IMG/VR virus record: IMGVR_UViG_3300046535_002009
Coordinates: 32,001-96,000 of that record
Strand: one strand, 5' to 3'
Length of the DNA stretch: 64,000 bases
Origin: a virus
Below the pieces are notes generated by a model. The model ran no database searches. It was not told where the DNA came from and saw only the letters and a list, made by a program, of their open reading frames with translations. Position numbers and translations under genes: made by a program. Shown here piece after piece: positions 12,945 to 49,523 of the stretch (the first letter of the stretch is position 1; every line of letters starts with the position of its first letter).

Positions 12945-13403
12945 ATGAGTCCCCTCGTCGACGACAGCCAGCGGATCATCGACGCCATCGCCTGCGGCGC
13001 CTCCGGGGACCGGCCGGGCGCCCTGGCCCACCTGAAGCCGATCATCGACCGCGGCCCCGGCGCCATCTTCGCCATGCTCCACGCCCTGGCCAACGTCGCA
13101 GTGGTCGAGCAGAAGCCGGAGACCGGAACGTTCCTCGGCATCGCCGTCGAGACCACGGACGGGCACGCTGCGAGCATCGACCAACTCCCGGCCGGGCACC
13201 GGTTCGCCGCGCAGTTCACCACCGCGGTCGCGAACGACGACCTGGACCAGGCCGACGCCCTCTACCGCGCGCTGCTCGTCGGTGACGACTTCCACGCCGC
13301 CACCGGCTTGGCCGAAGGGATCGGCGCCGTCTACGACATGGCCGTCGCCACGACCGTCGCCATGGTCGAGCTGGCCCGGCAGCGGAAGCGGGGCCAGCAG
13401 TGA
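12945..13403 (+). CDS. Hypothetical phage protein
   Basis: AAGGAG RBS before ATG at 12945. Confidence 0.65.
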   Translation: MSPLVDDSQRIIDAIACGASGDRPGALAHLKPIIDRGPGAIFAMLHALANVAVVEQKPETGTFLGIAVETTDGHAASIDQLPAGHRFAAQFTTAVANDDLDQADALYRALLVGDDFHAATGLAEGIGAVYDMAVATTVAMVELARQRKRGQQ

Positions 13404-14212
13404 GCAGCGACACCACGGCGCTCGGCGACCGCATGAAGCGCTACGAGGCGCCGTACCGGGCCCTGTTGCCGCGCCGCACGTACACCGTGCTGCGGGTCGA
13501 CGGCCGCGCGTTCCACACGTACCTCAGGGGCGCCGTGCGGCCCTTCGACGAGGCTTTCGCCGCGGACATGGATGCCGTTGCCGCGGCGATGTGCAAGGAG
13601 ATCACGGGCGCATTCCTGGCCTACGTCCAGTCCGACGAGATCAGCATCGTCGCCGCGGACTTCCGCTCGACCAGCACCGAGCCGTGGTTCGGCGGGGTCG
13701 TCGCGAAGTGGACGAGCATCGGCGCAGCAATCGCCACGGCCGAGTTGAACGCCCGCCGGCCGGGCCGCCGTGCCCTGTTCGATGCCCGGGTCTTCACGCT
13801 GTCCGACCCGGTGGAGGTCGCCAACTACCTGGTGTGGCGGCAGCGGGACGCAACCCGGAACAGCATCGTCATGGCCGGGCAGGCGCACTTCCCGCACCGA
13901 TCCCTCCACGGGCAGGACACCGGGCAGATCCAGGAACGGCTGTGGGCTGAGCGGGGCGTGAACTGGAACCGCTACCCGGACGGCTTCAAGCGTGGCCGGG
14001 TCGCCACCCGCGTCGTCGGCTTCCGCGACAGCGAGCACCCCGAACGGGGGCGCGCGCCGCGGTCATGGTGGGCAGCGGAACCGGCACCGGTCTTCATCGC
14101 CGAGCCGGGCAGCTGGCTCGCCCGGACGATCCCCACCCTGCCCACGCTCGCACCGGCGCCGCCCTGCGGCGTCGGCCACTCGCTGGCACCGCACCAGTCC
14201 GCCCCGGCCTGA
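13400..14212 (+). CDS. thg1: Thg1-like tRNA(His) guanylyltransferase / 3'-5' RNA polymerase
   Basis: GDRMKRYE, LRVDGRAFHTY, YVQSDEIS, FDARVF, NYLVWRQRDATRNSI. Confidence 0.92.
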   Translation: MSSDTTALGDRMKRYEAPYRALLPRRTYTVLRVDGRAFHTYLRGAVRPFDEAFAADMDAVAAAMCKEITGAFLAYVQSDEISIVAADFRSTSTEPWFGGVVAKWTSIGAAIATAELNARRPGRRALFDARVFTLSDPVEVANYLVWRQRDATRNSIVMAGQAHFPHRSLHGQDTGQIQERLWAERGVNWNRYPDGFKRGRVATRVVGFRDSEHPERGRAPRSWWAAEPAPVFIAEPGSWLARTIPTLPTLAPAPPCGVGHSLAPHQSAPA

Positions 14213-16938: not shown

Positions 16939-17348
16939 TGTCGACGGGCCCGGTCGTGGCCTCTGGTGACGAACAGCTGCCCCTTGCGGACCCTCCCCGG
17001 CCGGCCGGGGCGGCGCGGCGAGTGGAGTGCCGCCGCTGCCACCGGGCACTGACCGACCCGGACTCCCGGCTGCGCCGCATCGGCCCGGACTGCGAGCACC
17101 TGATCGCGGCCGCGCGTCGGCACGACATCGACCAGGACCCGCTACCCGGGCTGGAGTGGCGCGATAGCCGGGACGCTTCATGCCCCCTGAGCTCTCTTGC
17201 CGCCCCTGAGGACCAGCTGTACAACGCCATGCTGGCCTGGGACGGGTCAGCGGCATTCACAGAGACCTCCACCCGGGCCTCCCCGCCCTCCCGGAAGAGA
17301 GCGGGGCTCGCACTCAACGACTGGTCACTCGAAAGACTCGCTGGCTGA
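16938..17348 (+). CDS. DUF6011-like zinc-binding protein
   Basis: CRRCHRALTDPDSRLRRIGPDC. Confidence 0.65.
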   Translation: MSTGPVVASGDEQLPLADPPRPAGAARRVECRRCHRALTDPDSRLRRIGPDCEHLIAAARRHDIDQDPLPGLEWRDSRDASCPLSSLAAPEDQLYNAMLAWDGSAAFTETSTRASPPSRKRAGLALNDWSLERLAG

Positions 17349-17715
17349 TGTTTGCCTCGACGAGAGTCGTCTCCCCCACCTGCGTCCAGTTCCGCCAATA
17401 TGCCGCGCCGCCATGGTTCTCGCCCATGCACTGGCAGTCGCAGTCGTCGCCTTCCGCGTCGCGGCAACGGATATCGCATCTGCTGTTCGTCCGAAAGTCG
17501 ATCGCCACCTCGACCACCCCGAAGCGATCTGCCAGGGCCTCGACTGTCGCGCGCATGTGCTGGCGCGAGATCTCCCAGCATTTCTCCGCCCCGTTCCAGT
17601 CCGGCCGCACCAGGCTGCCGAGGGTGCGGTGGATGAAGGCTCGGTTACCCACGGCGTACGGCATGCGGACCCGGATCCGCCCGGTGCCGACCGGCCGGTA
17701 AACCGTGGCAATCAC
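17314..17715 (-). CDS. Cys-rich hypothetical protein (third gene of helicase operon)
   Basis: CDIRCRDAEGDDCDCQCMGENHG; start overlaps the upstream stop by 1 nt. Confidence 0.7.
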   Translation of the reverse strand: MIATVYRPVGTGRIRVRMPYAVGNRAFIHRTLGSLVRPDWNGAEKCWEISRQHMRATVEALADRFGVVEVAIDFRTNSRCDIRCRDAEGDDCDCQCMGENHGGAAYWRNWTQVGETTLVEANISQRVFRVTSR

Positions 17716-18299
17716 TAGGCCTCCTCGCTGAGAATGCGTACGAGGTCGACAATGGCCGCGCTAGACAGGTGCTTCCGCAGGACGCGCGCCGTGGCGTCAG
17801 TGTCCTCCACCGGCACGCTGACTGCTCGCCTCCGGAAGCCCGCCTGCACCATGGCGGCGTGCGCGGACAGGTGCCCCGCGAGGACCTCGGCATGCAGCTC
17901 GGGGGCGTCCTTGCGGAGGCGGCGAAGGGCCGAGGTCTGAGAGTTCCCGTCCGGCTGGGCAAGGTTGACATTGTCACCCTTGCTTCGGTCGCCCCCGTGC
18001 GGAGCCTGAAGGGCCTGGTCGAGCAGGTCGAGCGCCACCGGATCGTCCGCGACCACCCGCTGGACGAGCGCCACCGACGCCCCGAGCCCCTTCAGCGGCG
18101 GCGTGGTCACAAAGTCGGCGAAGCTCGCGTGCTCCACCAACTCGCCCCGCACGGTGACGAAGGACCGCCAGGACCCATCAGCGAGCAGCCGGCGCAGGAG
18201 CTCCGGAGCGTTCTCCAGCCCGCTCCCGCCCCGCTCCAGCGCAGAGGACAGCGCCTCAACGAGGGTTCCCCGTGCGCGCCCCTCCTCCCGCGCGGTCAC
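17715..18299 (-). CDS. Hypothetical helical, possibly DNA-binding protein (second gene of helicase operon)
   Basis: HGGDRSK..GNSQTSALRRLRKDAPELHAEVLAG.LSAHAA resembles ParB-associated helical regions; GTGA overlap with helicase. Confidence 0.7.
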   Translation of the reverse strand: MTAREEGRARGTLVEALSSALERGGSGLENAPELLRRLLADGSWRSFVTVRGELVEHASFADFVTTPPLKGLGASVALVQRVVADDPVALDLLDQALQAPHGGDRSKGDNVNLAQPDGNSQTSALRRLRKDAPELHAEVLAGHLSAHAAMVQAGFRRRAVSVPVEDTDATARVLRKHLSSAAIVDLVRILSEEA

Positions 18300-20221
18300 T
18301 GAGCCTCCCGAAGCATCTGCTCCACGAATTCCAGTCCGCGCTGCAGCTGCTGGACGCTCGCGTCAGCGCGCTTCCGCACGCCCATGACCTGGTTCACCCG
18401 CCACTGCAGCTCCGGGTGCTCCAGCCCAAGCTTGAACACCGCGTGGCGCGAGCGCTTCGTCAGCTGGTCGGCCAAGGCCTTCCGCCTCTTGTGCAGGGGC
18501 TCGTCCGCGGCCCCGATCGCCACCCTGCTGCCCTGCGGCGGGATGGGCATCGGCACCGTGCCGACCTTGGTCAGCTCGCCGAGCTCCTCGCGGACGAGCT
18601 TGCGCATCGAGGCGAGCACGCTCGGCGGGAAGTCGTGCTTCTTAAGCAGTTCCTCCGCGCGCTCGTTCTCCTCCACGGTCCACTCGGTGCCGGCATGGAT
18701 CGCGCCGTGGAACGTGGGCTGGGACGCGGCGAGGGGGATCCGGGCGAACAGGTCCAGCATCTGTTGGCCGTTGCCGTCGCTCAGCTCGCGCTCGATCTCC
18801 TCCTCCTGGAGGTCGAGCTCGTGCCGGATCTCCTGCTCGATCTGCGCCGCCATGATCCGGAGGCCCGAGAGCGCTGGCGCGAACACCGTGGCGATCTGCT
18901 CGTCAGCCTTGCCTTGGCGCCGGACGAACCGGCCGACCGCCTGGCGGAAGAACATCTCCGTCTTCGTCTTCGTGGCGTACACCCCGAGGGCCAGGCGCGG
19001 GACGTCGACGCCTTCCGACACCATCCGGACAGCGACCAGCCAGCGCTGGCTGCCCTCGGAGAACCGGTCGATGCCGAGCTTCGCCTCGGGGCCGTCCTCG
19101 GAGAGCACCACGACGGGGTCCTCGCCGGTGATGTCCTTCAGTATCTTGGCGTAGGCCTTCGCCTGCGGGGCCCGGTAGGCGATGACCAGGCCGCCAGCCC
19201 GCGGCGCCTCCTCCCGCATCGCCGTGAGCGTGCTGTCCGCCTTCAGTAGCAGGCCCTTCATCCAGCCCGTGGCCGGGTCCAGCGCGGTCTCCAGGACGGC
19301 GGACACGTCGCCGCGCTGCAGTTCGGCCGACAGGTTGGCGCTGGAGGTCACCGACCCGGAGTCCATCCACTTCATCTCGCCGTCGTAGAAGTGGAAGTCG
19401 ACCTGGCGGCAGACGTCGTCCCGGATGGCCTGGCCATAGCTGTATGTGTAGTCAGCGATAGAGCGCGGCACTCCGTCGCTGTCCTTCTCATACCGCACGA
19501 AGGGGATCGGGTTGTTGTCCGACCGGAACGGCGTGCCGGACAGGGCCAGGCGGCGCGACGCCTCGGAGAAGGCGTGCTTGACCGCGGCACCCCACGCCTT
19601 CTCATCGCCGGCATGGTGGACCTCGTCGAGGATCACCAGGGTCTTCTGCTGGCAGCCGAGGCGGTGGAGGTCAGGCTGCGAGGCGACCTGGGCATAGGTG
19701 ACGGCCGCGCCGCGGTAGTCCGCCGGGTTCTCCAGGCCGTCGCTGTTCTTCGTCGTGGGGTCGATCTCGAAGCCGCACTCGTGTGCGGCCGTCGCCCATT
19801 GCATCTTGAGGTGCTCGCTCGGCACGACGATGACGATGCGCCTGACCACCCCGCTGTCCATCAAGTCGCTGGCTAGCCGGAGCGCGAACTTGGTCTTCCC
19901 GGCGCCCGGGGTGGCGACCACGAGGAAGTCCCTGGCATTGCGCGTGACATAGGTGGTCAGGGCAGCGCGCTGCCATTCGCGGGGGTCGGGGCCAGTCCAT
20001 GCCATGTGCGTCGAGCCCTTCTTCAGGTTGCAGTCCGGGCAGAGCGCTTGCCCGTTGATCACGTCAGTAGGGCCGCCGGCAGACCATGGGGTGATGTGGT
20101 CGCCGTGCCAGCCCGGGAGGAGCCGGGTCCCGCACTTCGTGCAGGTGCCACCCGAGGCGAGGTACATCGCCACGCGCTCGGAAGAGTTGAACCGGCGGCG
20201 GGTGGGGTCCGGAGTCACCAC
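18296..20221 (-). CDS. HNH endonuclease fused to SF2 DEAD/DEAH (ResIII-like) helicase
   Basis: CTKCG..WHGDHITPWSAGG.T...NGQALCPDCNLKK; ATPGAGKT; ILDEVHH; LSGTPFRSD; MVSEGVDVP; FRQAVGRFVR. Confidence 0.9.
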   Translation of the reverse strand: MVTPDPTRRRFNSSERVAMYLASGGTCTKCGTRLLPGWHGDHITPWSAGGPTDVINGQALCPDCNLKKGSTHMAWTGPDPREWQRAALTTYVTRNARDFLVVATPGAGKTKFALRLASDLMDSGVVRRIVIVVPSEHLKMQWATAAHECGFEIDPTTKNSDGLENPADYRGAAVTYAQVASQPDLHRLGCQQKTLVILDEVHHAGDEKAWGAAVKHAFSEASRRLALSGTPFRSDNNPIPFVRYEKDSDGVPRSIADYTYSYGQAIRDDVCRQVDFHFYDGEMKWMDSGSVTSSANLSAELQRGDVSAVLETALDPATGWMKGLLLKADSTLTAMREEAPRAGGLVIAYRAPQAKAYAKILKDITGEDPVVVLSEDGPEAKLGIDRFSEGSQRWLVAVRMVSEGVDVPRLALGVYATKTKTEMFFRQAVGRFVRRQGKADEQIATVFAPALSGLRIMAAQIEQEIRHELDLQEEEIERELSDGNGQQMLDLFARIPLAASQPTFHGAIHAGTEWTVEENERAEELLKKHDFPPSVLASMRKLVREELGELTKVGTVPMPIPPQGSRVAIGAADEPLHKRRKALADQLTKRSRHAVFKLGLEHPELQWRVNQVMGVRKRADASVQQLQRGLEFVEQMLREAQ

Positions 20222-20496
20222 GCGGTGGCGGTCGGCTGGCGGAGGGCGTTAGGTTGGGCCTGAGCCATGGGAGATCGCACTCCTCTGGTCGGCGCCCTCG
20301 GCGGGGATCGCGAGTTCCCGCCCGAGGGCATCACTGTGCCTGCACTGGTTCGCAGATGAACCAGACAGAGAAACATTACTCCGAGTGGACGACAATCTGA
20401 CTAGTTGTCACTCTGTGCCACATGCGCACTTGAGCGACTGAAGTGGTCGGCACTGAGTGTCGTATCGGGAAGTGATGCGGCGACACCCCGTATCCA

Positions 20497-21134: not shown

Positions 21135-21842
21135 TCAGTACGCTGCGGCCCGCACGCCGTCCGGGATGCCGGCGGCGAGGATCCCGCCGTCGACCGCGGT
21201 GACGGTGCCGCGCTCGTCCGGGAGGAGAACCTCCAGCGTTCGGCCGGCACCCGGTGCTCCGCGGCCGGACGCCCGGATGTGGACCCGGCGGGACATGAGC
21301 TGGCCGTGGCCGTCGCCGAGCCCGGTGCACTCGCGGGCGGCCACGTCGAGCTGCAGGTGCGCGCCGGGCCAGGGGCCGGGGGTGAGGAGCACGGTGCCGT
21401 GCTGGCGCAGCCGGGCGCCGAGGCGGCTGGCCGTGGCCGGCGAGGGGCCGACCGGGCCCAGGAGGAGGATCTCGACCGCGGGGAGCAGCCCGGCGCAGAC
21501 GTCGGGCCACTGGTCGCCAGGGGTGTCGGCGAGCAGGAGCCGGTCGAGGTCGATGCCGTAGCCGGCGGCCGCGGCCAGGCCGAGGTCGGGGAGGGCGACA
21601 GCGGCGGTCCAGACGTCGGGCCGGTGGACGGCGGGTCCGGCCGCGAGGGCGAGGAGCAGGCCGGGGTCGCGGACGACGGCGACAGTGCCGCGCTGGAGGC
21701 CGCCGTGCGGGAGGAGGGTCGCGAGTTCCGGCTGGACGGGCAGGGTCTGTGCGGCCTCGGCCCGGGCGCGGGCGGCCGGGGAGGTGGCTTCGAGGAGGTC
21801 GGTGAGGGCGGGGCGCTCGCGCGGCTCGGCGGGGGCGGTCAT
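21135..21842 (-). CDS. ImuA'-like (RecA/SulA-fold) protein
   Basis: LPV.PELA.LLP.GGLQRG, LLLALAA, AAVALPDLGLAAAA..GIDLDRL, RL.ARLRQ.G.VLL..G.WPGA. Confidence 0.75.
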   Translation of the reverse strand: MTAPAEPRERPALTDLLEATSPAARARAEAAQTLPVQPELATLLPHGGLQRGTVAVVRDPGLLLALAAGPAVHRPDVWTAAVALPDLGLAAAAGYGIDLDRLLLADTPGDQWPDVCAGLLPAVEILLLGPVGPSPATASRLGARLRQHGTVLLTPGPWPGAHLQLDVAARECTGLGDGHGQLMSRRVHIRASGRGAPGAGRTLEVLLPDERGTVTAVDGGILAAGIPDGVRAAAY

Positions 21843-22603: not shown

Positions 22604-24079
22604 ATGACGACCACCGAACAGAAGCCCGCGTCCACGGCCGTGCCGGCACCTGCCCGGCCGAGCTGGGCCAGGCTCGCCCCGCCGCCCGCGGCCCGCCGGT
22701 GGTGGCGGCCGGCGACCGCCCCCCACATCGCCCTCGCCTCGGCCTTCATGGCCGCCTACACGCTGGTCTCGGCGCTGCGATACGCCCGCTTCGACTTCAG
22801 GTCGTGGGACCTGGCGATCTTCACCGAGGAGGTCAAGGCCTACGCCCACCTGCGGGTGCCGATCGTCCCGGTGAAGGGCGACGGCTTCAACGTCCTCGGC
22901 GACCACTTCAGCCCCATCACCGCCGCCATCGCCCCCCTCTTCCGGATCTGGCCCAGCGCCTTCCTGCTGCTCCTCGTCCAGGCCGCCCTGTTCGCCTGGT
23001 CCACCGGCGTCGTCTCCGACACGGCAGCCCGCCTCCTGGGCCGCTCCCGCGGCCTGTGCATCGGCATCGGCTACGGCCTCTCCTTCGGCCTGCAGCGCGC
23101 CATCGACGTCGACTTCCACGAGGTCGCCTTCGCCGTGCCCCTGGTCGCGGTCGTCTGCCGGCAGCTGCTCGCGCGCCGCTGGCACCGCGCCGTGTGGTGG
23201 TCGCTCCCGCTGCTCCTGGTGAAGGAGGACCTCGGGATGACGGTCGCCGCCGTCGGCCTGCTCCTGCTCATCCAGGGCCGGCGCCGGGTGGCCGGCCCCG
23301 TCCTCATCGTGCTCGGGGCCACGGCCACGGTCGCGCTCGTGTGGTGGGTCGTCCCGCACTTCAACCCGACCAGCCAGTACGCCTACTGGGACCGCTACGG
23401 CGGCCGGCACCCCCACGTCTGGACCCTGCTCTGGGCCGCGGTGAAGCGCCTGCAGACGTGGACGACACTCGGCTGGACCCTCGGCATCACCGGCCTCCTC
23501 GCCGCCCGCTCCCCACTCCTGGCCCTCGCTGCGCCCACCCTGCTGTGGCGCCTCACCTCGACGTACGACGCCTTCCGCGGCACGGGCTGGCAGTACTCGG
23601 CGGTCCTGATGCCGATCGCGTTCCTCGCCGCGGCCGACGCCGCGCTGCGCATCCGGTCCTCCCGCCGCGTGTGGTTGTGCCAGTTCTCCGACCGGACGGT
23701 GACCTCGCTGCCGGCCGTCGCCCTGGCCTGTATGGCCGGCATGACGTACGGCCTCGGCGGGCTCGCCCAGGCCAGCGCATGGTCGGGCGGGCACGTGGCC
23801 GAGGCCCGGCGGGCCGCTCTCGACCGGATCCCCGACGGCGCGACCGTGGAGGCGACGACGGACGTCCTGGCCGGCCTGGCCGGGCGGTCGGACGTCTACT
23901 GGTACGGCGGGTCGAAGATCCGGCCTCCGCAGTACATCGTCTTCGACAAGAACGACTGGGACTCCGCGCCGCTCGGCGACCAGGCCGCGCACGTCGCGCA
24001 GGATCTGCACCCGGGCTCGACCTACCGGGTGGTGTTCAGCCGCGACAAGGTCACGGTCGTCCGGCTCCTGGCCGGCTGA
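22604..24079 (+). CDS. DUF2079 polytopic membrane protein (GT-C-like glycosyltransferase candidate)
   Basis: SWDLAIF, LGDHFSPI, LLLVQA, DFHEVAFAVP, LLVKED, WQYSAVL; many TM segments. Confidence 0.85.
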   Translation: MTTTEQKPASTAVPAPARPSWARLAPPPAARRWWRPATAPHIALASAFMAAYTLVSALRYARFDFRSWDLAIFTEEVKAYAHLRVPIVPVKGDGFNVLGDHFSPITAAIAPLFRIWPSAFLLLLVQAALFAWSTGVVSDTAARLLGRSRGLCIGIGYGLSFGLQRAIDVDFHEVAFAVPLVAVVCRQLLARRWHRAVWWSLPLLLVKEDLGMTVAAVGLLLLIQGRRRVAGPVLIVLGATATVALVWWVVPHFNPTSQYAYWDRYGGRHPHVWTLLWAAVKRLQTWTTLGWTLGITGLLAARSPLLALAAPTLLWRLTSTYDAFRGTGWQYSAVLMPIAFLAAADAALRIRSSRRVWLCQFSDRTVTSLPAVALACMAGMTYGLGGLAQASAWSGGHVAEARRAALDRIPDGATVEATTDVLAGLAGRSDVYWYGGSKIRPPQYIVFDKNDWDSAPLGDQAAHVAQDLHPGSTYRVVFSRDKVTVVRLLAG

Positions 24080-24088
24080 CCGCGGTGG

Positions 24089-25435
24089 TCAGCCTGCCCG
24101 CTCCTCGCTGAGGATCTCGGAGTACCGGCCGTGGACGCCGAAGCCTCGCAGGAGCGGACCCACCATGCGGTTGACGACGCCGCCCGGCGCGGTGGCGAGT
24201 TCGGCCCGGGTGGCCGCGGTGGCCTGGTGGTAATCGTCGCGGTCGTATCGAGACGGGTAGCTCGTTCCCCAGGACTGCATCATCGAGTAGGGCACGCGTC
24301 CCTTGAGCCGGGACGCGCCGACGGCGAAGGACCAGGCTCCCTGGTGTCCGGTGATGTCGGCGACCTCCTCGACGACGGCAACGAGCCGTCGAGCGAGAGA
24401 GGGCGCAGCAGCGTCGAGGACGACCTGCTGCCCGCCTGCTCGGTCCATGTGGTCCGAGAACCGGCTGAAGTACAGCCGGAGACCGCCGTCCTCGAACACC
24501 TGCAGCTCGACGACGTCCTCGTCCTCCGCCCGCTCGGGCTGCCAGATTCGGCCTTGCCCGAGGTTCGGCGTGGCCCTGGCGACGCCGCCGGAGCGCCGGA
24601 AGCTGTTGCTTGCGTGGAGCAGCTCCGGGTGCACTTCGTTGCCCTGGAGCACCTGGTTCACCTCGGGGGTGTAGGACTTCTGGACCAGGTGCGCGAGCTT
24701 GAGGTTCCAGTCGGGTGCGCTGGTGAAGTCGAGCAGCATGTCTCGCCTCCCGGCGATGGGCTGCGCAACGAGGAACAGGTGTGACTGCTCGCCGATGTCG
24801 CCGAGGGGATCGCGCTTCATCTCGTCGCTGAGGATGGCCAGGACGTCCTCGTCCGTTGAGCGGCGTCGGGCGTGGAGGCGTGCGACGTCCGGGTCCCTGA
24901 GGATGTGCTTGGTCGTGTCGCCGCGCCCGTGGTACTTGCCGTCCACCATGTGCGGTGCCTGGGGGCTCATCGGCACGTGGACCACGAGGTACCCGTGGGA
25001 GGTGTCTGCGTTGCTGGGGATCGGCTTGATGACGACGCTGATCGGGGGGTCGGGTATCGATCGGGCAACCTGGTCGACTCGCTCGGCGAGGCCCCCGAGG
25101 GGCTGCGGTGCGAGGCTGAAGGTGCGGGCGGACTTGTCCTCGTCGATGCCGATGAGCAGGGTGCCGCCCTCGTTGGCGAAGGAGGCGAGATCGCGTGCCA
25201 GCTCCCGGTTGTCGCTCTTGCTGGCCAGCTCCCGCTTCGCGTCGAGGTAGCTCGACTCCTCGATGAGCCCGCCGTCGATGGCGGCCTGCAGGTCGGCTTC
25301 GGTCTGGGGAGTCCAGCGGGGGTTGTCCGGGGAGAGGTAGATCGTGGTCAAGTGCACCTCGCGCTTCATGTCGCCGCTGCTGCGTCCTTGCAGCAGTGCG
25401 AGTATGCGCCGGAGGTCCGACAGATCGCGCTCCAA
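24089..25435 (-). CDS. Schlafen/AlbA_2 domain protein (true start probably 25357-25369)
   Basis: EESSYLDAKREL, ELARDLASFANEGGTLLIGIDE, VPMS..APHMVDGKY.GR. Confidence 0.85.
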   Translation of the reverse strand: MERDLSDLRRILALLQGRSSGDMKREVHLTTIYLSPDNPRWTPQTEADLQAAIDGGLIEESSYLDAKRELASKSDNRELARDLASFANEGGTLLIGIDEDKSARTFSLAPQPLGGLAERVDQVARSIPDPPISVVIKPIPSNADTSHGYLVVHVPMSPQAPHMVDGKYHGRGDTTKHILRDPDVARLHARRRSTDEDVLAILSDEMKRDPLGDIGEQSHLFLVAQPIAGRRDMLLDFTSAPDWNLKLAHLVQKSYTPEVNQVLQGNEVHPELLHASNSFRRSGGVARATPNLGQGRIWQPERAEDEDVVELQVFEDGGLRLYFSRFSDHMDRAGGQQVVLDAAAPSLARRLVAVVEEVADITGHQGAWSFAVGASRLKGRVPYSMMQSWGTSYPSRYDRDDYHQATAATRAELATAPGGVVNRMVGPLLRGFGVHGRYSEILSEERAG

Positions 25436-32927: not shown

Positions 32928-33611
32928 TCAGTCGAGGTCGACGACCAGGGCGGTGGCGTTGTCGGCGCGCTCTCCGCCGAGGCGGATGGCGGTGCGCACG
33001 ATGAGGGAGGCGGTGTCCGCTGCCTGGCCGCGGCGGTAGTCGGCGAGGTTGTGCCCGTGGTCTTCGATGGGCTCGTAGGCGCCGTCGGAGGCGAGGAGGA
33101 GACGGCCGCGGGCAGGTACGACGGCGAGGCCGACAGGGCTGTCCGCTGCCGGGTATCCGATGCAGGAGGTGACGATGTTGCGGGTGTACCGGCCGGGCTC
33201 AAGGCCCATGTCGAGGAGCTGTTGGCGCCGATTGTGGTCCGTGGTGAGGCGCAGCGCGGGGCCGGCCTCCGGGAGGAGGTAGGCGCGGACGTCACCGGAC
33301 CAGGCGACGGTGAGGGTGCCGTTGTCGACGGTGGCGACGGCGGCGCAGGCGGAGGGGAGTTGGTTGAACTGCCCGGCCTGATCCTGTGCGGCCTCGGCGC
33401 GGGCCCGGGCGGTGGCGAGGGCGTACTCCGCGCCGTGGTGGGTCGCCTCACGGGCGACCCGGCTGGCCGTGAGGCGGGTCCAGCGGCGCACCTGCGGGTT
33501 GGAGCCGATGCCGTCGAGGAGGACGAAAGCCGGCATGCCCGTGAGGTTGACGCGGGCGGCGTCGCATTGGTGGCTGCGGCTACCGGTGAACTGGAGGATG
33601 GCGGGGAGCAT
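32928..33611 (-). CDS. PP2C/PPM-family protein phosphatase
   Basis: R..QCDA, LLDGIG, WSGDVRAY, LTTDHN, LLASDG, ADNATALV; GAAGGAG RBS. Confidence 0.85.
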   Translation of the reverse strand: MLPAILQFTGSRSHQCDAARVNLTGMPAFVLLDGIGSNPQVRRWTRLTASRVAREATHHGAEYALATARARAEAAQDQAGQFNQLPSACAAVATVDNGTLTVAWSGDVRAYLLPEAGPALRLTTDHNRRQQLLDMGLEPGRYTRNIVTSCIGYPAADSPVGLAVVPARGRLLLASDGAYEPIEDHGHNLADYRRGQAADTASLIVRTAIRLGGERADNATALVVDLD

Positions 33612-36913: not shown

Positions 36914-37557
36914 GGGGTGGTGTCTTCCTCGGCGGTGGTGTTGCCGGCTCGGGCCTTGGCGAGGTCGGTGCGGCTGGGGTGGGGGTCGGCGTGTTTGCGT
37001 GGGGGTTTGCCTGGGCGGCCGCTGGTGCAGGAGCGGCCGGGTAGGGCGTGGCACTTGGGGCAGCCGACGGCGAAGGGGTTGGCGACGCCGGGGACTTGGG
37101 GCGGGGGTGGTGCTTCGCCGATGGCGGCGAGGGCGGCTTGGAGGCGGCGGCCCTGGGGGCCTGCTTCGAGTTCGAGCGGGCGCCGGTTCGCCGGGTTGAG
37201 CTGGTGGGCTGGGGGGACGGGGCGGCCGTCGCCGGCGGCGGCAAGGAGCCTGCGGAGGTTGCGGATGCCCTCGATGGGGGTCTCGTCCGGGTTGCCGGCG
37301 TACTGGAGGTTCGCGCGGTCGATGCGCGGTGCGCGTGCCTCGGCGCGGATCTGCCGGACGTGGAAGGGGAGGATCCAGCGGCGTCCGTCGAGGTCGCCTC
37401 GCCGGGTGTAGTAGATCGTGACGGCGGCGAGGGCGTCCTCGTCGAGGGGGATGTCGTGCAGGGCTGCGGCCCAGGCTTCTGCGGCGGCCTTCGACGGCAT
37501 GCGGTTGTCGAAGGCGGCGGCTCTGGCCAGGAGGTCGAGTGCCTCGTCTCGGTTCAC
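36910..37557 (-). CDS. Replication accessory protein (helicase-loader/inhibitor-like N-terminus plus zinc finger)
   Basis: MNRDEALDLLARAAAFDNR...AEAWAAAL; CPKCHALPGRSC..HPSR; coupled to the initiator. Confidence 0.65.
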   Translation of the reverse strand: MNRDEALDLLARAAAFDNRMPSKAAAEAWAAALHDIPLDEDALAAVTIYYTRRGDLDGRRWILPFHVRQIRAEARAPRIDRANLQYAGNPDETPIEGIRNLRRLLAAAGDGRPVPPAHQLNPANRRPLELEAGPQGRRLQAALAAIGEAPPPPQVPGVANPFAVGCPKCHALPGRSCTSGRPGKPPRKHADPHPSRTDLAKARAGNTTAEEDTTP

Positions 37558-38624
37558 GCGGGGTACTCCTCGTGGTCGCTCTTGAGGGCGAGCCAGCCGG
37601 CGACCCGGTCGTCGGTGGTGCTGTAGGCGGGGCGCTGCTGGCTGGGCTGGCGTCCGGCGGCGAGGCGTAGCTGGTCGTACTTCTCGCGGAGCTTGGGCAT
37701 CGAGAGGACGTTGCCGCGCCAGAAGTCGTCTGCCTGGCACCAGCGGATCGCGTTGCACAGCTGCTCGGGGGTACGGCCGTCGATGTCGATGGCGCGGCGG
37801 GCGGCGTCGCGCCAGGCCTGCGTGATGCGGGGCCGCTTGGAGCCGTTGGCCTCGATGAGGTCGGCGAGGAGCGTGCACGCTTCTTCGACGTCGGGCCGGA
37901 GCGGCTCCGGGGTGCGCGTGGCGACGGCGTGGTTCGGACGAGGGTTCTTCCCTGCTCCCTGCTCCCTGCTCCCTGCTCCCTGATCAGGAGTGAGGATCTC
38001 GGGAACCTCTCCGGAGACCTTCGTGAGGGTTTCACGAGGTTCTCCGTAGGCGCCGTGACCTGCGCTGTTGTCGCGCTGTGGGGTCGGGGTGGGGGTCGCG
38101 GTGGGGAGTTGGAAGATCGTGGCGCCTGCACCGTGCCCGTGGTCCTCCGAGGGGTTTCCGGAGGGTGCCGGGGAGGTCCCGGAGAGGGCCGTGTCGATCT
38201 TCGTGAAGGCCTCCGGAGGATTTCGGGAGGGCTTCTGTGGGCGCTCCGGGTTCTTCGTGCGCCATTCGGCGAACTCTCCAGGTTCGTCGTGAGGGCAGGG
38301 CGGGATCTTCGGCTTCGCGGGGTGCTGCGGGCGCTGGTGCTCGGTCCAGTTCGGGCAGTGCAGGAAGCGCCGGCCGTCGACGTCGTAGCGGCACACGGAG
38401 CCGCTGTCGGCCATGAGGTCAAGCCAGGTGTCGACGTCCTCGGCCTGGATGCCGCGGTCTCTGGGGAAGCAGTCCGCGGCGATCAGGAGCCCGTCGTCGA
38501 CGCCGCGGCCGTGGTCGTCGAGGTAGCCCCAGAGCAGAACGAAGAAGTAGCGGACGGGCATGGGCCACGCGGAGACCGTGAGGGAGGTGCGCAGCTCGGG
38601 CTTGATCGCACGGATGCGGGCCAT
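37554..38624 (-). CDS. Phage replication initiator (replisome organizer)
   Basis: MARIRAIKPE, LW.YLDDHGR, NWTEHQR; C-terminal DDFWRGNVLSMPKLREKYDQLRL. Confidence 0.8.
   Translation of the reverse strand: MARIRAIKPELRTSLTVSAWPMPVRYFFVLLWGYLDDHGRGVDDGLLIAADCFPRDRGIQAEDVDTWLDLMADSGSVCRYDVDGRRFLHCPNWTEHQRPQHPAKPKIPPCPHDEPGEFAEWRTKNPERPQKPSRNPPEAFTKIDTALSGTSPAPSGNPSEDHGHGAGATIFQLPTATPTPTPQRDNSAGHGAYGEPRETLTKVSGEVPEILTPDQGAGSREQGAGKNPRPNHAVATRTPEPLRPDVEEACTLLADLIEANGSKRPRITQAWRDAARRAIDIDGRTPEQLCNAIRWCQADDFWRGNVLSMPKLREKYDQLRLAAGRQPSQQRPAYSTTDDRVAGWLALKSDHEEYPA
37950..37984. repeat. Heptamer tandem repeat (CCCTGCT)x4 + CCCTGAT inside the initiator gene
   Basis: Read directly from the sequence. Confidence 0.85.
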
Positions 38625-39151: not shown

Positions 39152-40254
39152 TCAGCGTTTGGTGGGCGGCCCGTAGGGGCTCTGCCAGGCCGGCCGGTCG
39201 GTTCGGCGGGCGGGCTTGCCATTGGTGTCGAGCAGGCCTGCGGTCTTGAGGGCTTCGAGGTGCGCGGTCAGCTGACGGGCTGCGGCCTGCACCGCGGGGA
39301 GAAGCGCCTGGGCGAACTCTGTGATCGCGGCGCTGAGAGCTGCTCCTGCACGGAGCAGCGCCTCGCGTTCGGCGTCGGTGAGGGCGCTGGGCGTGTTCAC
39401 CGCAGTGTCTTCTCGGTGCGGTCGGCTGCCTGGCCGGTGCAGCAGGCGCGGGCGCAGCGGCCGCGGTCGGCCCAGGCCCGGGCGATGCGGCAGACGGCGA
39501 TGGTTGCGCAGATCGTGACGACGACCAGCAGGTTGGCGAGGTACTCGTTCATCGGGATCCTTCCGGTGGGGCCCGGCCGGGGTGTCCGGCCGGGCGGGGC
39601 TGGCTAGTTGGTGGTGGGTACGGGCGCGAGGACACGCTTGCGGCGGCGGGGCCGGGTGGCGAGGTGGTGCGCGGCCATCCAGACGGCGCTGGGGGCGAGG
39701 GACGCGACGATGCCGATCACGGTGTTGACGGGGCCGTGGCCCGCGGCGTTGGCGAGCAGCGCGCCACTGGGGGCGAGGAGGGCGCCGGCGAAGCTGATCG
39801 GTCCCATCACGGTGAACGCGAGGTCGAGGGCGACGCCGAGGTTGGCCCAGCCGGTCCGGACGTCGACCGGGTCGACCTTCTTGAAGTCGTCCATCGCCAT
39901 GTCGGCGACGCTGCGGCGGGTGATCAGGGAGGCGCCGGCGAAGAGGAGGACTGCCAGGACCAGCAGGTAGGCCAGGTACGTCAGCTGGTGGACGACGAGG
40001 GCCAGGAGGATGATCGCGCCTTCGGCGAGCATGGCGCGGTGCAGCGGGCGGCACCAGCGGTGGGGGCAGCTACGGGTCGGGGTGTGCGGCTTGCGCATGG
40101 AGAACTCCCGCTTTCAGAGAAGGTCGTCGAGGATGAAGTCGCCGAACCAGACGAGGACGGCGGCGACGGCCGCCCAGTGGGGGCTGCCGGTGGCGGCCCA
40201 TGTGATGAGCCCGGCGAGGGCGGCGCCTGCTGTGCCAGCGAGGAAGCGAGTCAC
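39152..40254 (-). other. Small hypothetical and membrane genes (39152-39400, 39397-39552, 39604-40098, 40114-40254)
   Basis: Hydrophobic segments, RBSs, overlaps. Confidence 0.55.
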
Positions 40255-40988
40255 CGGACGATCCCGGCCGCCCGGGCTGCGGCGAGCCAGGTCGGGTATT
40301 CGGCGAGGAGCCGGTCGTAGAGGTCGGCGTCGGTCATGCGGCGGGGGTTGCGGCCGACGGCGAAGAAGCCAGCGTTGTCGACGGTGCGGCCGCGCATGGT
40401 GTCGAGGCCGCGGAGGAACGCGAACTCGCCTGATTCCTGGGGGCCGAAGCCGATGAACTGCCAGAAGATCGGCAGGTTGCTGGCCTCGCGGAGTACGAGC
40501 TGGGTGTCGGCGGCGTCGGTGCAGGCCCCGTCGGTCTGGAAGATGACGAACGCGGGCGTGGTGCTTCCGCGGTGGGCGTCCATGACCTTGCGCATGGCGG
40601 GCGCGTAGCGGGTGCCGCCCCAGGTGATGCCGCCGGTGCGGCGGAGGTTGTCGACGGCTCCGCGGTGGGAGCCGATTCTGACCTCCATCGGGTCGTAGGC
40701 GCGGCTCTGGAAGAACACGACGGGGACGGTGCCGTCGTCGTCGAGGTTTGCGGCCAGGCCGAGGCTCTGCTCGGCGAGGTGCTGAACGTCGCCGGCGGCG
40801 TAGTGGTCGTCCATGGAGCCGGAGTGGTCCAGGACGAGGTAGACGTCGGCGTGTTCGGTGTTGAGGCCGCGCTTGGTAAGGGAGACGCCGGCGGCCTTGA
40901 CGAGGCTGACGAGCTCGGGGGCGTGGTCCTGGATGGTGTCGGGGGTGATCGGGGTGGGGCTGGCGGTCTTGCGGCTGAACAGGCCCAT
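40251..40988 (-). CDS. vWA domain protein (TerF-associated vWA type)
   Basis: MIDAS LVLDHSGSM, GGTRYAPAM, FVIFQTDG, PIFWQFIGFG, VDNAGFF. Confidence 0.88.
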   Translation of the reverse strand: MGLFSRKTASPTPITPDTIQDHAPELVSLVKAAGVSLTKRGLNTEHADVYLVLDHSGSMDDHYAAGDVQHLAEQSLGLAANLDDDGTVPVVFFQSRAYDPMEVRIGSHRGAVDNLRRTGGITWGGTRYAPAMRKVMDAHRGSTTPAFVIFQTDGACTDAADTQLVLREASNLPIFWQFIGFGPQESGEFAFLRGLDTMRGRTVDNAGFFAVGRNPRRMTDADLYDRLLAEYPTWLAAARAAGIVR

Positions 40989-41014
40989 GGCGGGGTGTCC
41001 TTCGGTGGGGAGGG

Positions 41015-41899
41015 TCACGCGGCGCGTGTGCGTCGGCGGAGTTTGCGCTCGCGGGCCGCGTCGCGGACGGCGCGGCGGCAGCGCGGGCACGTCGGTGTGC
41101 CGATCTGGGTGTGGTCGTAGTAGCCGCCGGGGGTGCCGCAGCGGGCGGTCCAGTCCGGGGCGGCGGCGGGGTCGTCGATGGTGTCGTCGTCCCAGGCGAG
41201 GGGGACGGCCCAGGCGTGGCGGGCGGCGATGGCAAGGGCACCGGTGCGGTCGCGGGTGCGGACGCCGTGTTCCGCGGGGTCTGCGGCCCACAGCCGGTCG
41301 TACAGCTCGTGGACGAGCCGGGCCCGGCTGGAGGTGACACGGGGTCGGCGGCCGTGGGCGAGGTGCCACAGCTCTTCGCCGTGGGTTCCGCCGAGCCGGG
41401 CGAGGACGCGGATGGGCCAGCCGGAGGCGACGAGCGCCTGGACGCGCCGTCGGGAGCCGGTGCCGTCGACGACGGCTCGGCCGCCGGGCGGCACGCGGGG
41501 GATGGCGACGGAGCGGACGGCCCGGGCGTTCTCCTCCCGCATGCGGACCGAGGGCCGTTGGGCGCCGGCGCGAACGAGGAGTCGGCGCACGACCTTCTCG
41601 CTGACGGCGGCCTGCGCTGCGATCTGCTGGTAGGTCATGCCGGCGCGGACGAGGGCCTGCGCGTGGAGGCGGACGGGCTCCGCGGAAACGTAGGGCTGCC
41701 AACGGCCGTAAGCGACCTGGCGGCGCTTGGTGGCGGACCACGCGGTGGAAGCGAGCGTGCAGCGGCGGCAGCGGCAGCCGTGGTGGGTGTAGGTGGAGTG
41801 GCGACCGTGGGTGAGCTGTTCGGTGGGGTTTCCGCCGGTGACGGTGAGGGTGGAGTTGTCGGTCACTGCGGTCGCCTCTCGGTGGTGCGGGTGGTTCAT
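41015..41899 (-). CDS. Phage DNA-binding protein, paralog 1
   Basis: HG...Y...GCRC..C; HTH; GSRRRVQAL..GWP; PLAWDDDTIDDP. Confidence 0.75.
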   Translation of the reverse strand: MNHPHHREATAVTDNSTLTVTGGNPTEQLTHGRHSTYTHHGCRCRRCTLASTAWSATKRRQVAYGRWQPYVSAEPVRLHAQALVRAGMTYQQIAAQAAVSEKVVRRLLVRAGAQRPSVRMREENARAVRSVAIPRVPPGGRAVVDGTGSRRRVQALVASGWPIRVLARLGGTHGEELWHLAHGRRPRVTSSRARLVHELYDRLWAADPAEHGVRTRDRTGALAIAARHAWAVPLAWDDDTIDDPAAAPDWTARCGTPGGYYDHTQIGTPTCPRCRRAVRDAARERKLRRRTRAA

Positions 41900-46411: not shown

Positions 46412-46669
46412 TCAGGCAGCAAGATCGGTGGGGGTGGACAGGTCGGCCGTGAAGGCGAGCAGGCCACGCTGCATCGCGATGGCGACGGCGTGCGGGGTGG
46501 TCCTGGCTCCCAGGCGGCGGCGCATGGTTCCTGCCTGGGTGCGGACGGTCTGGTGCGACACGCGGTGGAGTGCTGCGACCTGGCGGAGGGTGAAGCCCTC
46601 GGCGAGGCCGTGGAGTACCCGCATCTCGGCGACGGACAGCTCACCGGGCGGGATCGGGTACGTGCTCAC
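46412..46669 (-). CDS. Stand-alone LuxR-type HTH
   Basis: LSVAEMRVLHGLAEG...VA....VS..TVRT. Confidence 0.8.
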   Translation of the reverse strand: MSTYPIPPGELSVAEMRVLHGLAEGFTLRQVAALHRVSHQTVRTQAGTMRRRLGARTTPHAVAIAMQRGLLAFTADLSTPTDLAA

Positions 46670-47508
46670 GCTGCCGTCTTCTCTTCCTCGGCCGGGACGA
46701 GTGGCCAGCGGCCGTCGATCACGGCGTGGGGGTCGCGGCTGGCGCCGGCCTTCGGGCTGCGCAGGTAGGCCTCGAAGGACGTGGCCTGTTCGATGGCCCA
46801 GTGGACCTGCCGGGCGTGCAGCTCCTCGGCGGTGATGCCGCCGACCTCGTCGAACTGCTCGCTTCGCTCGGCCCGGACGAAGTCGGGGCGCTGGATGCGG
46901 GGCTTGGACCCGATGGCGCCGATCTTCCAGGCGATCTGCCAGGCCTTCAGCGCGTCGTACTCGGCGCCGTGGGCGGCTTCCTCGTCCCAGGGGAGGTCGT
47001 AGACCGCGGCGAGGGTGCGGAGTTGGCGGGCGCCCTGCTCCTTGGAGACCCGCTTGCGGTACGGCAGGACGTGCTTGTCGAGGACCATCGTGTCGACGAC
47101 CGGGCCGAGGGTGCGGCCGAGGGTCTCGACGAGGCCGGCGCCGGTGTGCCGCCTGGCCTCGTGGTTGAGGAGGTTGAGGTCGTAGCTGCCGATGTTGTGG
47201 CCGACCAGGACGATGCCGGAGCGGACGGCGTCGAGGACGGCGGTCACGATCTGGGGTACGGCTTCGTCGGCGGGGGTTCCGTGCTCGGCGAGGTAGAAGC
47301 CGGTGAGGCCGTGGACGGCGGCCGCCGCGTCGGGCATGGGCACGCCCGGGTTGACGGTCCAGGTGTGCTTCGCCGGGGGCTGGTTGCCGCCGATGAGGAT
47401 GAGCGCGGCCTGGGCGATCCGGTCCTTGGTGACGTCGGTGCCGGTCGTCTCAAGGTCGAAGGCGGCCATGCGTCGGGTGTGCCAGGCGGCGGGTCGGTAG
47501 GTGTTCAC
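46666..47508 (-). CDS. DEDDh 3'-5' exonuclease (DnaQ-like)
   Basis: FDLETTG, VGHN..YD, VDT..LD, AHGAEYDA. Confidence 0.9.
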   Translation of the reverse strand: MNTYRPAAWHTRRMAAFDLETTGTDVTKDRIAQAALILIGGNQPPAKHTWTVNPGVPMPDAAAAVHGLTGFYLAEHGTPADEAVPQIVTAVLDAVRSGIVLVGHNIGSYDLNLLNHEARRHTGAGLVETLGRTLGPVVDTMVLDKHVLPYRKRVSKEQGARQLRTLAAVYDLPWDEEAAHGAEYDALKAWQIAWKIGAIGSKPRIQRPDFVRAERSEQFDEVGGITAEELHARQVHWAIEQATSFEAYLRSPKAGASRDPHAVIDGRWPLVPAEEEKTAA

Positions 47509-47673: not shown

Positions 47674-48690
47674 TCACTCGGCACCGTCCGGCTCTTCGGT
47701 CGGCCAGTCCTCGTCGTGCTCCTCGATGACCTCGGCGTCGATCGCGCCGTCGGCGTCGGGCTCCGGCTCCCCCGCGGCGGGCTTGCCCCGACGCTCGGAC
47801 TCGGCCTTAACCTCGGCGGCTCGGCGCTTCAGCAGCTCCTTCAGCTCCGGAGTGAGGTCGCGGTTGCGGTCGGCCAGGCGCCAGGTGTCCTGGACGTCCT
47901 CGACGTGGAGGGCAGCGGCGGCCAGGGCCACGTAGTCGGGCCGGGCGGCCTCCAGGGCGAGCCGGGGCGCAGCCGAGGGGTTGAGGGCGATCTCGGTGGG
48001 GATCGGCCCGGACAGGGCCTGGCGCGGGGTCAGGCCGCGTACCTCCACGACCACGACCGGGAAGTGCTTCGTCTTGCCCTCGGCGACCCGCATCCGGGGC
48101 TCGATCCGCATCGTCACCGGGACGAGGCCGCGACCGCCGGTCCCGGCGAGGACCATGTCGACGGTCCCGGCCATCTCACTCGCGGCGTAGAACGAGTGGG
48201 TCTCGCAGAGCCAGGTACCCAGGCCCGGGACGTCCGGCAGGACGACGGAGATCCGGGTGGTCGCCGAGCACACGGTGCCCTTGGGCCGCAGGTGCCAGTC
48301 CTCGCCGCACTCGGCGGCGCAGAGGCACGGCCTGCGACTGATCAGCTCGGTCTCGCCGTTGCACCGCCGCTGGCAACCGCCCTTGGTCCAGAGCTCGTTG
48401 TACTGGGACAGCGGGTCGCCCGGGGGCAGGAGCGCATCGACCTGCTCGGCGTTGGTGATGAGCCGCCACTGCTCGGGCCCGTTGCCCTGCGGCTGCCAGC
48501 GGGTCACCTTGCCGCCCCACAGCTCGGCGGCGACGTGGAGCTTCTCGTCGGTATGGCTGGTCAGGACCCAGGTCTTCGACTTGACCGGGACGGGCCGCTT
48601 GCCCGGGTCCTTGTGCGGCACGGACCACCCGGTCCGCATCTTGCCGAGGGTGACGGCCCGGCGCTGCGTGTTGAGGATCCGGCCGCCCAT
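47674..48690 (-). CDS. Phage recombination protein (Gp3-like 'recombination directionality factor' family)
   Basis: LGKMRTG, SQYNELW..GGCQRRCNG, C..TTRISV.LP..PGLG.W..ETHSFYAA.E; follows the exonuclease. Confidence 0.65.
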   Translation of the reverse strand: MGGRILNTQRRAVTLGKMRTGWSVPHKDPGKRPVPVKSKTWVLTSHTDEKLHVAAELWGGKVTRWQPQGNGPEQWRLITNAEQVDALLPPGDPLSQYNELWTKGGCQRRCNGETELISRRPCLCAAECGEDWHLRPKGTVCSATTRISVVLPDVPGLGTWLCETHSFYAASEMAGTVDMVLAGTGGRGLVPVTMRIEPRMRVAEGKTKHFPVVVVEVRGLTPRQALSGPIPTEIALNPSAAPRLALEAARPDYVALAAAALHVEDVQDTWRLADRNRDLTPELKELLKRRAAEVKAESERRGKPAAGEPEPDADGAIDAEVIEEHDEDWPTEEPDGAE

Positions 48691-49523
48691 CACGCCGCCT
48701 TCAGGAAGTCGGGCTCCGCGGCCTCGGGAGGCAGCAGCGCGGGGTGCGAGCCGGGGAGTTCGTGGAGCCACTGGGTGGTGACCAGGGCGCCGCGGAAGGC
48801 CCGCCAGGCGGCCTTGTCACCGGGCATGTCGACGAGCGCGTGCGAGCGCTGGCGCAGGTTGAGGATGCCGGTGCGCTGGATTGCGGGGACCGGCTCGGAG
48901 GTGTCGTCCGGGAGGATCACGACCTCGCAGAAGCGCAGCGCCGCGAGCTGCATCGCGAACTCCGGGTAGACGCTCTTGGCGGGCCGGGTGGAGCTGGTCT
49001 TGAAGTCGATCAGCCACAACTCCCGGCGGCCGCCCGGGCCGGTCGGCAGCCAGATCATGAGGTCGGCGGTGCCCGCGTAGCCCAGGGTCCGGTGCATGCA
49101 GGTGATCTCGGTGGAGACGACGTCGCGGGTGATGTCGACACCCCACGCGGTCATCCACTTCACGAGCTGCCGGGCGTACGACTCCACCTCCGGGTCGGCC
49201 GGGTGGGGCGTGCCGAGCATGATCGCCTGCGCCCTGAGGTGGACGCGGCTGCCCAGGTCGGCAGCCCGCTCGCGGACGTCGCGGTGGACCTGCTTGATCT
49301 CCCGGACGAGCTCGGCCCGATCGGTGATCGCCCGGCGGGCGACCATGATGCGGCGCTCCAGCATCCACTCGATCGTCTCCCGGACCGCCCAGGGCATCAG
49401 CGCGTGGTGCTTGGAGACGGAGGAGTCGATCACGTTGGTGACGCTGACGAGGTCGGGGCCGCCGGCCGGGTCGGAGTAGTACCGGCCGTTCTCGGTGTCG
49501 CGGGCGAGCCTGGGATCGGTCAC
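48690..49523 (-). CDS. PD-(D/E)XK exonuclease (RecE/Cas4-like)
   Basis: SVTNVI, GSRVH, E......GYAGTADL, LIDFKT, QLAAL. Confidence 0.85.
   Translation of the reverse strand: MTDPRLARDTENGRYYSDPAGGPDLVSVTNVIDSSVSKHHALMPWAVRETIEWMLERRIMVARRAITDRAELVREIKQVHRDVRERAADLGSRVHLRAQAIMLGTPHPADPEVESYARQLVKWMTAWGVDITRDVVSTEITCMHRTLGYAGTADLMIWLPTGPGGRRELWLIDFKTSSTRPAKSVYPEFAMQLAALRFCEVVILPDDTSEPVPAIQRTGILNLRQRSHALVDMPGDKAAWRAFRGALVTTQWLHELPGSHPALLPPEAAEPDFLKAA

Follow-up and report, generated by a model that had tools for sequence, protein, structure and literature searches.

The 64,000-nt stretch of DNA analysed here (the window) comprises bases 32001–96000 of a 110,060-bp IMG/VR virus record, IMGVR_UViG_3300046535_002009, which represents an actinophage; its GC content is ~72%. 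The sequencing runs listed are all of rhizosphere metagenome DNA, none of RNA. Within the window, a gene for an HNH nuclease fused to a superfamily 2 (SF2) helicase (gene 1) and the small gene directly behind it (gene 2) form a translationally coupled two-gene cassette whose nuclease and motor both look active and which is specific to phages and plasmids. We tentatively propose, with a probability of about 0.4, that the two products constitute a partner-guided nuclease-translocase that processes replication or recombination intermediates of the very element that encodes it. An earlier reading of the same sequence (the original prediction) had joined the next gene in line (gene 3) to this pair and had taken the resulting three-gene operon for an undescribed defence module. 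The three open reading frames (ORFs) and their overlaps, 4 nt between genes 1 and 2 and 1 nt between genes 2 and 3, lie exactly where that prediction had placed them (Table 1), and GC at third codon positions (GC3) is of the coding type in all three genes (0.93, 0.87, and 0.82, respectively).

The domain fusion described in the original prediction is equally firm. Searches of Pfam and PHROG place an HNH nuclease at the N-terminus of the gene 1 product, fused to an XPB/UvsW-like SF2 ATPase of the ResIII (DExH) type, with a C-terminal region of ~170 aa that carries no known domain. The HNH domain scores 42.8 bits against PF01844 (curated cut-off, 21.4), and the motor is recognized as ResIII/DEAD over aa 80–233 (ResIII, E = 1e-17; 64.8 bits against a cut-off of 22.5) plus Helicase_C. 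In an alignment of 14 homologues with identities down to 40%, the nuclease residues C27, C30, H39, D41, H42, N56, C61, C64, and N65 are invariant, as are Walker A (aa 103–110), the DEVHH motif (199–203), the SGTP motif (228–231), and motif VI (427–434) of the helicase. Given this invariance of both sets of motifs among the homologues, both activities are under selection. The last HNH position seems to be occupied by an asparagine, which would make the domain an HNN variant. The closest solved cores are those of archaeal XPBII and Rad25 (E = 4e-18 to 5e-11), followed further down the list of solved structures by RadD, the R subunits of type I and type ISP enzymes and, more weakly, UvsW. Homologues of the HNH-helicase number in the thousands, the closest ones in the NCBI database coming from Kitasatospora sp. 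NPDC005751 and Streptomyces sp. 184; a match on a Pseudomonas plasmid (H16) was discarded on account of its different architecture. The acidic linker behind the helicase core contains a sliding-clamp-peptide-like stretch, Q-Q-M-L-D-L-F (aa 495–503, ~18713–18739). A beta-clamp motif was rejected as a feature of the family: sequences resembling Q-x-L-[DSE]-L-F occur in 21 of 118 relatives (0.6 expected from shuffles), all in the closest clade, and the strict motif in 4.

The association between the two genes of the cassette was assessed across 117 helicase loci from species-representative genomes, IMG/VR contigs, phage PIS 136, and two Streptomyces plasmids, which were scanned with hidden Markov models. 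At all 34 loci with an HNH-fused helicase, the next gene downstream, in the same orientation, is gene 2, and gene 2 is missing from 82 of the 83 loci with an HNH-less helicase, most of which represent a syntenic chromosomal gene of actinobacteria. The coupling is nearly as constant as the order: in 37 of 39 loci, the helicase stop codon overlaps an in-frame start of gene 2, the shared sequence being ATGA or GTGA in most of them. The loci span several phyla, including contigs from Chloroflexota and Acidobacteriota and phages of 48–58% GC. Such strict coupling usually signifies a two-subunit machine. In the tree of helicase cores, the chromosomal HNH-less forms make up one tight clade, and a fully supported split (1.0) sets the gene 2-associated helicases, together with five HNH-less viral helicases, on its other side. 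Two individual loci may be mentioned here. The viral contig L106 is the sole locus at which the gene just before gene 2, joined to it by the usual overlap of 4 nt, encodes a helicase without a detected HNH domain. In L118 (10001–10323), the HNH domain breaks off after ~34 residues (74% identity) and the C-terminal domain of gene 2 follows at once; this ORF looks like a deletion remnant from which the helicase was removed.

The gene 2 product is modelled as two helical domains (aa 1–100 and 119–194) joined by a disordered linker, with an AlphaFold2 mean predicted local distance difference test score of 83.5 for the whole protein and 92.5 for the C-terminal domain alone, which carries a highly conserved basic helical motif. 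Pfam, PHROGs, PADLOC, and NCBIfam yielded no family for this protein, and a search of PDB sequences with its profile returned only chance rows. At the level of structure, the best VIA Z for the whole model (5.9) falls on generic helical repeats, the C-terminal domain model has no Foldseek match and VIA Z values of at most 3.1, and the relatives found in BFVD are uncharacterised Caudovirales proteins only. The 15 weak rows obtained with the C-terminal domain include ParB-N of pNOB8 (Z = 2.5) and KorB (Z = 2.0–2.2); these would be compatible with DNA binding by this domain and prove nothing. The basic motif may resemble a helix-turn-helix of the ParB/KorB type. The ESM Atlas places gene 2 in unnamed clusters only, 69–81% of whose members are viral, and a match to DUF3102 at 0.82 in the same resource is a lead and no more. 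The family is nonetheless very large: an exhaustive profile search recovered 6,235 representatives of 50%-identity clusters, mostly viral, of which 706 score at E <= 1e-30 and are nearly all 190–210 aa long, and a word-indexed search gave 781 matches. Among the same relatives, the partner is better conserved than the helicase (55–65% versus 40–45% identity). In one homologue, P0294 (374 aa), the sequence runs on into a Holliday-junction resolvase domain of the RusA type (aa 241–348), owing either to gene fusion or to read-through between neighbouring genes.

Gene 3 does not belong to this conserved module. Its product contains a cysteine cluster, CDIRC...CDCQC, and draws a blank in Pfam, PADLOC, and NCBIfam, with only a weak phrog_6842 stretch in PHROGs; just 18 relatives were found in the databases. 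Behind the pair it occurs only in L083, a relative 86% identical, and in the closest database relatives, on contigs shared with homologues of the helicase and gene 2. Relatives of gene 3 are present in 19 of 401 Streptomycetaceae genomes, and in none of the 15 other Streptomycetaceae loci that were fetched does the helicase or gene 2 lie within 1.5 kb. The trio is thus not a conserved unit, an outcome that the original prediction had named as one that would refute it; the pair, in contrast, is strongly conserved, and gene 3 is a lineage-specific passenger.

We infer that the two proteins of the pair form a complex, with the partner as its DNA-binding or licensing subunit, and that the substrate consists of the element's own branched intermediates. 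In this scheme, the gene 2 protein, made in step with that of gene 1, would bind the helicase and possibly DNA, and would target the enzyme to branched or stalled DNA of that element or license its action there. The motor would then remodel or branch-migrate the structure, the HNH domain would nick or resolve it, and the outcome might be assistance to replication restart, to recombination-dependent replication, or to concatemer processing. The nearest analogies for such a role are T4 UvsW, T5 D10 together with a resolvase, and archaeal XPB-Bax1. The ATPase core of gene 1 indeed matches this group, with XPBII and Rad25 at the top and UvsW weakly, but the likeness is confined to the motor lobes, and the XPB/Rad25, UvsW, and D10 enzymes have neither an HNH domain nor an obligate partner of the gene 2 type. 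T5 D10 is a branch-migration enzyme, and branched DNA is the substrate of both D10 and UvsW during the replication and recombination of phages (PMC5180179). XPB-Bax1 combines an XPB-type motor with a dedicated nuclease, and the closest solved chains (6p4f, 6p4w, 5tnu, and 6p4o) are named XPBII. Some of these entries, we assume, include Bax1. Unlike in XPB-Bax1, the nuclease of gene 1 is an HNH domain fused in cis rather than a separate protein of the Bax1 fold, and the additional partner is unrelated; the resemblance is best regarded as an analogy. Among eukaryotic proteins, ZRANB3 joins an SNF2 translocase and an HNH domain in one polypeptide and works at stalled forks; this enzyme belongs to a different helicase family and has its HNH domain at the C-terminus, whereas that of gene 1 is N-terminal.

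The nearest relatives of the helicase itself are encoded by the chromosomal HNH-less gene, with ~50% identity over aa 74–475; in some genera, such as Rothia, Micrococcus, and Arthrobacter, the similarity spans the whole length behind the HNH domain, and gene 1 and the chromosomal sister have a C-terminal motif in common. Unlike gene 1, the sister lacks both HNH and gene 2 and resides in a conserved chromosomal block of Micrococcales and Streptosporangiales, preceded by a gene for a small CxxC protein and followed by pncA, pncB, clpS, and aosR (L006–L082, for example L013:9510-15080). The CxxC protein is, we presume, DUF3039-like. This setting is one of housekeeping rather than conflict. As far as we could find, the sister helicase appears to be uncharacterised. 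SftH, which we take to carry DUF1998, was considered as its identity. That assignment was rejected, the literature tying SftH to the DUF1998 helicases MrfA and Hrq1. When the tree is rooted at its midpoint, which does not establish the root, the sister nests among the phage forms; such nesting would fit a domestication of the sister helicase.

Apart from the pair itself, no neighbour is constant across the loci, and in the related phages genes for replication and recombination are the most frequent recognizable neighbours. In L083, a replication initiator and DnaB are followed in order by the helicase and gene 2; in L088 and L113, the pair is followed by a replication initiator, and in L092 by a primase/helicase. 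DnaB is encoded two genes upstream in L107 and L110 and is among the neighbours in L114, an exonuclease gene lies two genes downstream in L109, and in the 95-kb phage PIS 136 the pair sits amid a YqaJ-type exonuclease, VRR-NUC, and DnaQ. Elsewhere, the pair is located on two Streptomyces plasmids (99 kb and 240 kb), and some loci lie beside GntR or XRE-TPR regulators. TnpB elements of the IS200/IS605 type are found repeatedly on, or close to, the 5′ flank of the cassette (Table 1), one of them just upstream of the helicase in L110, which is near-identical to L107.

Taken together, the kinship with XPB, UvsW, and D10, the housekeeping-like sister, the replication-module genes next to the pair in related phages, and the stronger conservation of the partner relative to the enzyme led us to rank a role in the DNA metabolism of the element first. 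Several observations weigh against it. In the phage studied here, ~17 kb separates the pair from the replication initiator, and the genes around it look accessory (SLFN/AlbA_2, DUF2079, and PP2C-like). The partner is of unmatched fold, Foldseek giving nothing at E <= 0.001 with the whole gene 2 model. The spread of the cassette is sporadic: a gene 2 match is present in 5 of 401 Actinomycetes genomes, of which 3 contain a full-length gene 2 with the adjoining helicase, and the pair was found in 1 of the 50,697 phage records of a phage collection. It stands behind the lysis cassette in L084 and L096 and, in L091, L105, L114, and both plasmids, forms a lone, moron-like unit between genes on the opposite strand. 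Finally, an IS605 element splits the helicase gene in L107, so that the helicase is dispensable, at least for the resident prophage.

Comparison with the known systems did not supply a name for the pair, as the original prediction had anticipated. The best model for gene 1 in the defence library is PbeA of PbeABCD (PDLC02707, E = 2.3e-26), which aligns only over the ATPase lobe (gene 1 aa 79–234 and a short stretch of the C-lobe; profile positions 252–416 of 672), and the best NCBIfam model is dnd_restrict_1 (TIGR04095; E = 9e-19, 68 bits against a cut-off of 600). Neither PbeB-, PbeC-, or PbeD-like partners nor dnd genes accompany gene 1, and PADLOC matched neither genes 2 and 3 nor any of the ten neighbouring genes, so that the association with a defence island that had been envisaged was not seen. 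Among the best 25 of the 27 PADLOC families for gene 1, there is no Zor model of Zorya type II and no HamB of Hachiman, and the partners (for Zorya, also the neighbours) gave no match to these systems; the unrelated HmaA scores at E = 0.003. The same best 25 of 27 families contain no Hhe model, and Gao_Hhe was taken as unrelated, given that a preprint lists it both under HEPN-domain systems and under those encoding a helicase and leaves HNH unmentioned. To the R-subunit core of type I and type III restriction-modification enzymes, gene 1 bears only a weak resemblance. A scan for methyltransferase domains that covered part of the phage genome found none in gene 2, in gene 3, or in the flanking genes, in line with the original prediction. 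Limited searches returned neither a paper nor a library family that describes the pair. It is best filed with the nuclease-helicase systems, as a variant whose partner belongs to a very large family without a name.

The explanation that we rank second is that the pair is a new two-gene system of anti-phage defence or superinfection exclusion, or an inter-element weapon of prophages and plasmids, in which the partner would sense or target invading DNA or else restrain the enzyme, and the helicase would translocate along foreign DNA that the HNH domain cuts. Fusions of a nuclease with an SF2 helicase are a common architecture of defence, and the best annotated matches to the core are restriction-type helicases; the cassette is autonomous, moves between a position after the lysin gene, the vicinity of XRE-TPR and GntR regulators, and islands on the opposite strand, possesses a separate leader that is lower in GC and contains a hairpin, is sporadically distributed and, judging from the insertion in L107, can be dispensed with. 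On the other hand, no named system was matched, the PbeA and dnd hits are limited to a generic ATPase lobe, none of the ten neighbours is a defence gene, and, in related phages, replication and recombination genes prevail among the recognizable neighbours. The conservation of the partner above that of the helicase is, moreover, unlike what would be expected of a fast-evolving sensor, and the closest helicase relatives are chromosomal genes of a housekeeping character. A widespread, undescribed immune or inter-element conflict system with a new kind of sensor or targeting subunit is a serious possibility, only a little less probable than the role in DNA metabolism. Of the defence module put forward in the original prediction, the coupled and unnamed nuclease-helicase cassette on phages and plasmids stands, and the trio and the defence-island context do not; the replication-type neighbours and the chromosomal sister further argue against it.

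Two other scenarios deserve consideration, both of them improbable. A host-takeover nuclease directed early in infection against the DNA of the host or of a competing prophage, with a partner that spares phage DNA or aims the enzyme, would be in keeping with an intact motor of the processive type fused to a nuclease and with the position of the pair in the early arms of phages, including PIS 136, where a C5 methylase is encoded nearby; on plasmid p3211-2, a methyltransferase gene even abuts the pair. Yet no gene for modification or self-protection is consistently found with the cassette, and its carriage by large plasmids is hard to square with degradation of host DNA. Still less probable is an addiction-like or selfish cassette, in which a potentially toxic HNH-helicase coupled to its inhibitor would persist by post-segregational killing or homing. 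The tight translational coupling of a nuclease to a small partner, the movement of the cassette among unrelated positions and replicons, and the recurrence of IS605 elements beside it could be read this way, but a protein of 641 aa with a full helicase is unlike the known toxins and homing endonucleases, and the L118 remnant and the IS-disrupted L107 show that loss of the nuclease gene can leave the partner, or a portion of it, in place, with no indication of an addiction effect.

The importance of the pair lies in a partner family that is tied to one domain fusion with near-perfect fidelity across phyla. Whether the cassette is a phage-encoded analogue of XPB-Bax1 acting on forks or junctions, as we favour, or a new defence system, either solution would explain what thousands of genes on phages and plasmids do, and study of the pair might also illuminate the uncharacterised sister helicase on the chromosomes of Actinobacteria.

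With regard to the layout of the locus, the three genes were originally described as an operon opposing the neighbouring early genes. In a GC3-based gene call, they instead terminate a ~33-kb arm of minus-strand genes that extends from ~50535 down to 17314, contains a single plus-strand gene (DUF2079), and merely converges with a plus-strand arm ending at 17348. A GC-rich short hairpin marks the convergence (Table 1).

Table 1. Features of the window and, in the last four lines, TnpB elements at related loci (coordinates of those loci).
Feature	Position	Strand	Remarks
Gene 1 (P0001)	18296-20221	minus	641-aa ORF
Gene 2 (P0002)	17715-18299	minus	194-aa ORF
Gene 3 (P0003)	17314-17715	minus	133-aa ORF
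HNH domain of gene 1, aa 27-70	20012-20143	minus	CxxC...WHGDH...N...CxxCN; PF01844, E = 6e-11
Helicase core of gene 1, aa 80-450	18872-19984	minus	Motifs I, II (DEVHH), III, and VI; Pfam and alignment
Upstream spacer	20222-20496	minus	275 nt; lower GC, 61.8% against ~72% for the window
GC-rich short hairpin (I7)	17281-17306	none	10-nt arms, 90% complementary; just past the gene 3 stop, at the convergence of the arms
tRNA-His guanylyltransferase-like (phrog_4717)	13400-14212	plus	
DUF2079 membrane protein	22604-24079	plus	
SLFN/AlbA_2 protein	24089-25435	minus	
PP2C-like phosphatase	32928-33611	minus	
Replication initiator, O/DnaD-like C-terminus	37554-38624	minus	~17 kb upstream of the pair
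vWA-TerF-like protein	40251-41018	minus	
RNase_T/DnaQ-like exonuclease	46666-47508	minus	
Gp3-like recombination directionality factor	47674-48693	minus	
TnpB element	L107:4922-6121		
TnpB element	L110:8625-9731		
TnpB element	L001:12589-13803		Phage PIS 136
TnpB element	L128:7735-8994		

Upstream of gene 1, the lower-GC region noted originally is indeed present as a spacer (Table 1) that contains a hairpin with 14-nt arms (20294–20307 and 20316–20329). A simple promoter scan of this leader found no sigma-70-type promoter, the sole terminator-like site detected by a terminator scan falls within gene 1 and is oriented the wrong way, and the predicted fold of the leader is not significant (z = -1.4). 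The helicase start itself lacks a purine-rich ribosome-binding site. A 17-codon ORF (20215–20268, minus strand), preceded by GAGGAG, ends in a TGA that overlaps the GTG start of the helicase, and in L083 an ATG homologous to the start of this ORF is in frame with the helicase; this arrangement may serve coupling, or it may reflect a frameshift particular to the lineage or an indel in the assembly. The GTG at 20221, taken here as the start of gene 1, corresponds to the initial ATG of a Kitasatospora homologue (P0005) that likewise has 641 aa, and adopting the 623-aa version present in the database (P0004) would remove conserved N-terminal residues. Further inside the gene, an ATG at 20003–20005 (codon 73) falls exactly on the boundary between the HNH domain and the helicase, with a Shine-Dalgarno-like AAGAAGGG ~10 nt upstream. 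Methionine is found within aa 68–80 in 73 of 118 relatives and valine in many others, and the ATG is near the presumed start of the chromosomal HNH-less helicase, for which the ORF calls begin at varied positions. Judging from the sequence, internal initiation that yields an HNH-less isoform is possible.

Two genes upstream of the helicase, the phage encodes a 235-aa protein (21135–21842, minus strand) without a family match. A homologue of this protein with 39% identity is encoded directly after the helicase-partner pair of a distant phage (L115:13087-13929).

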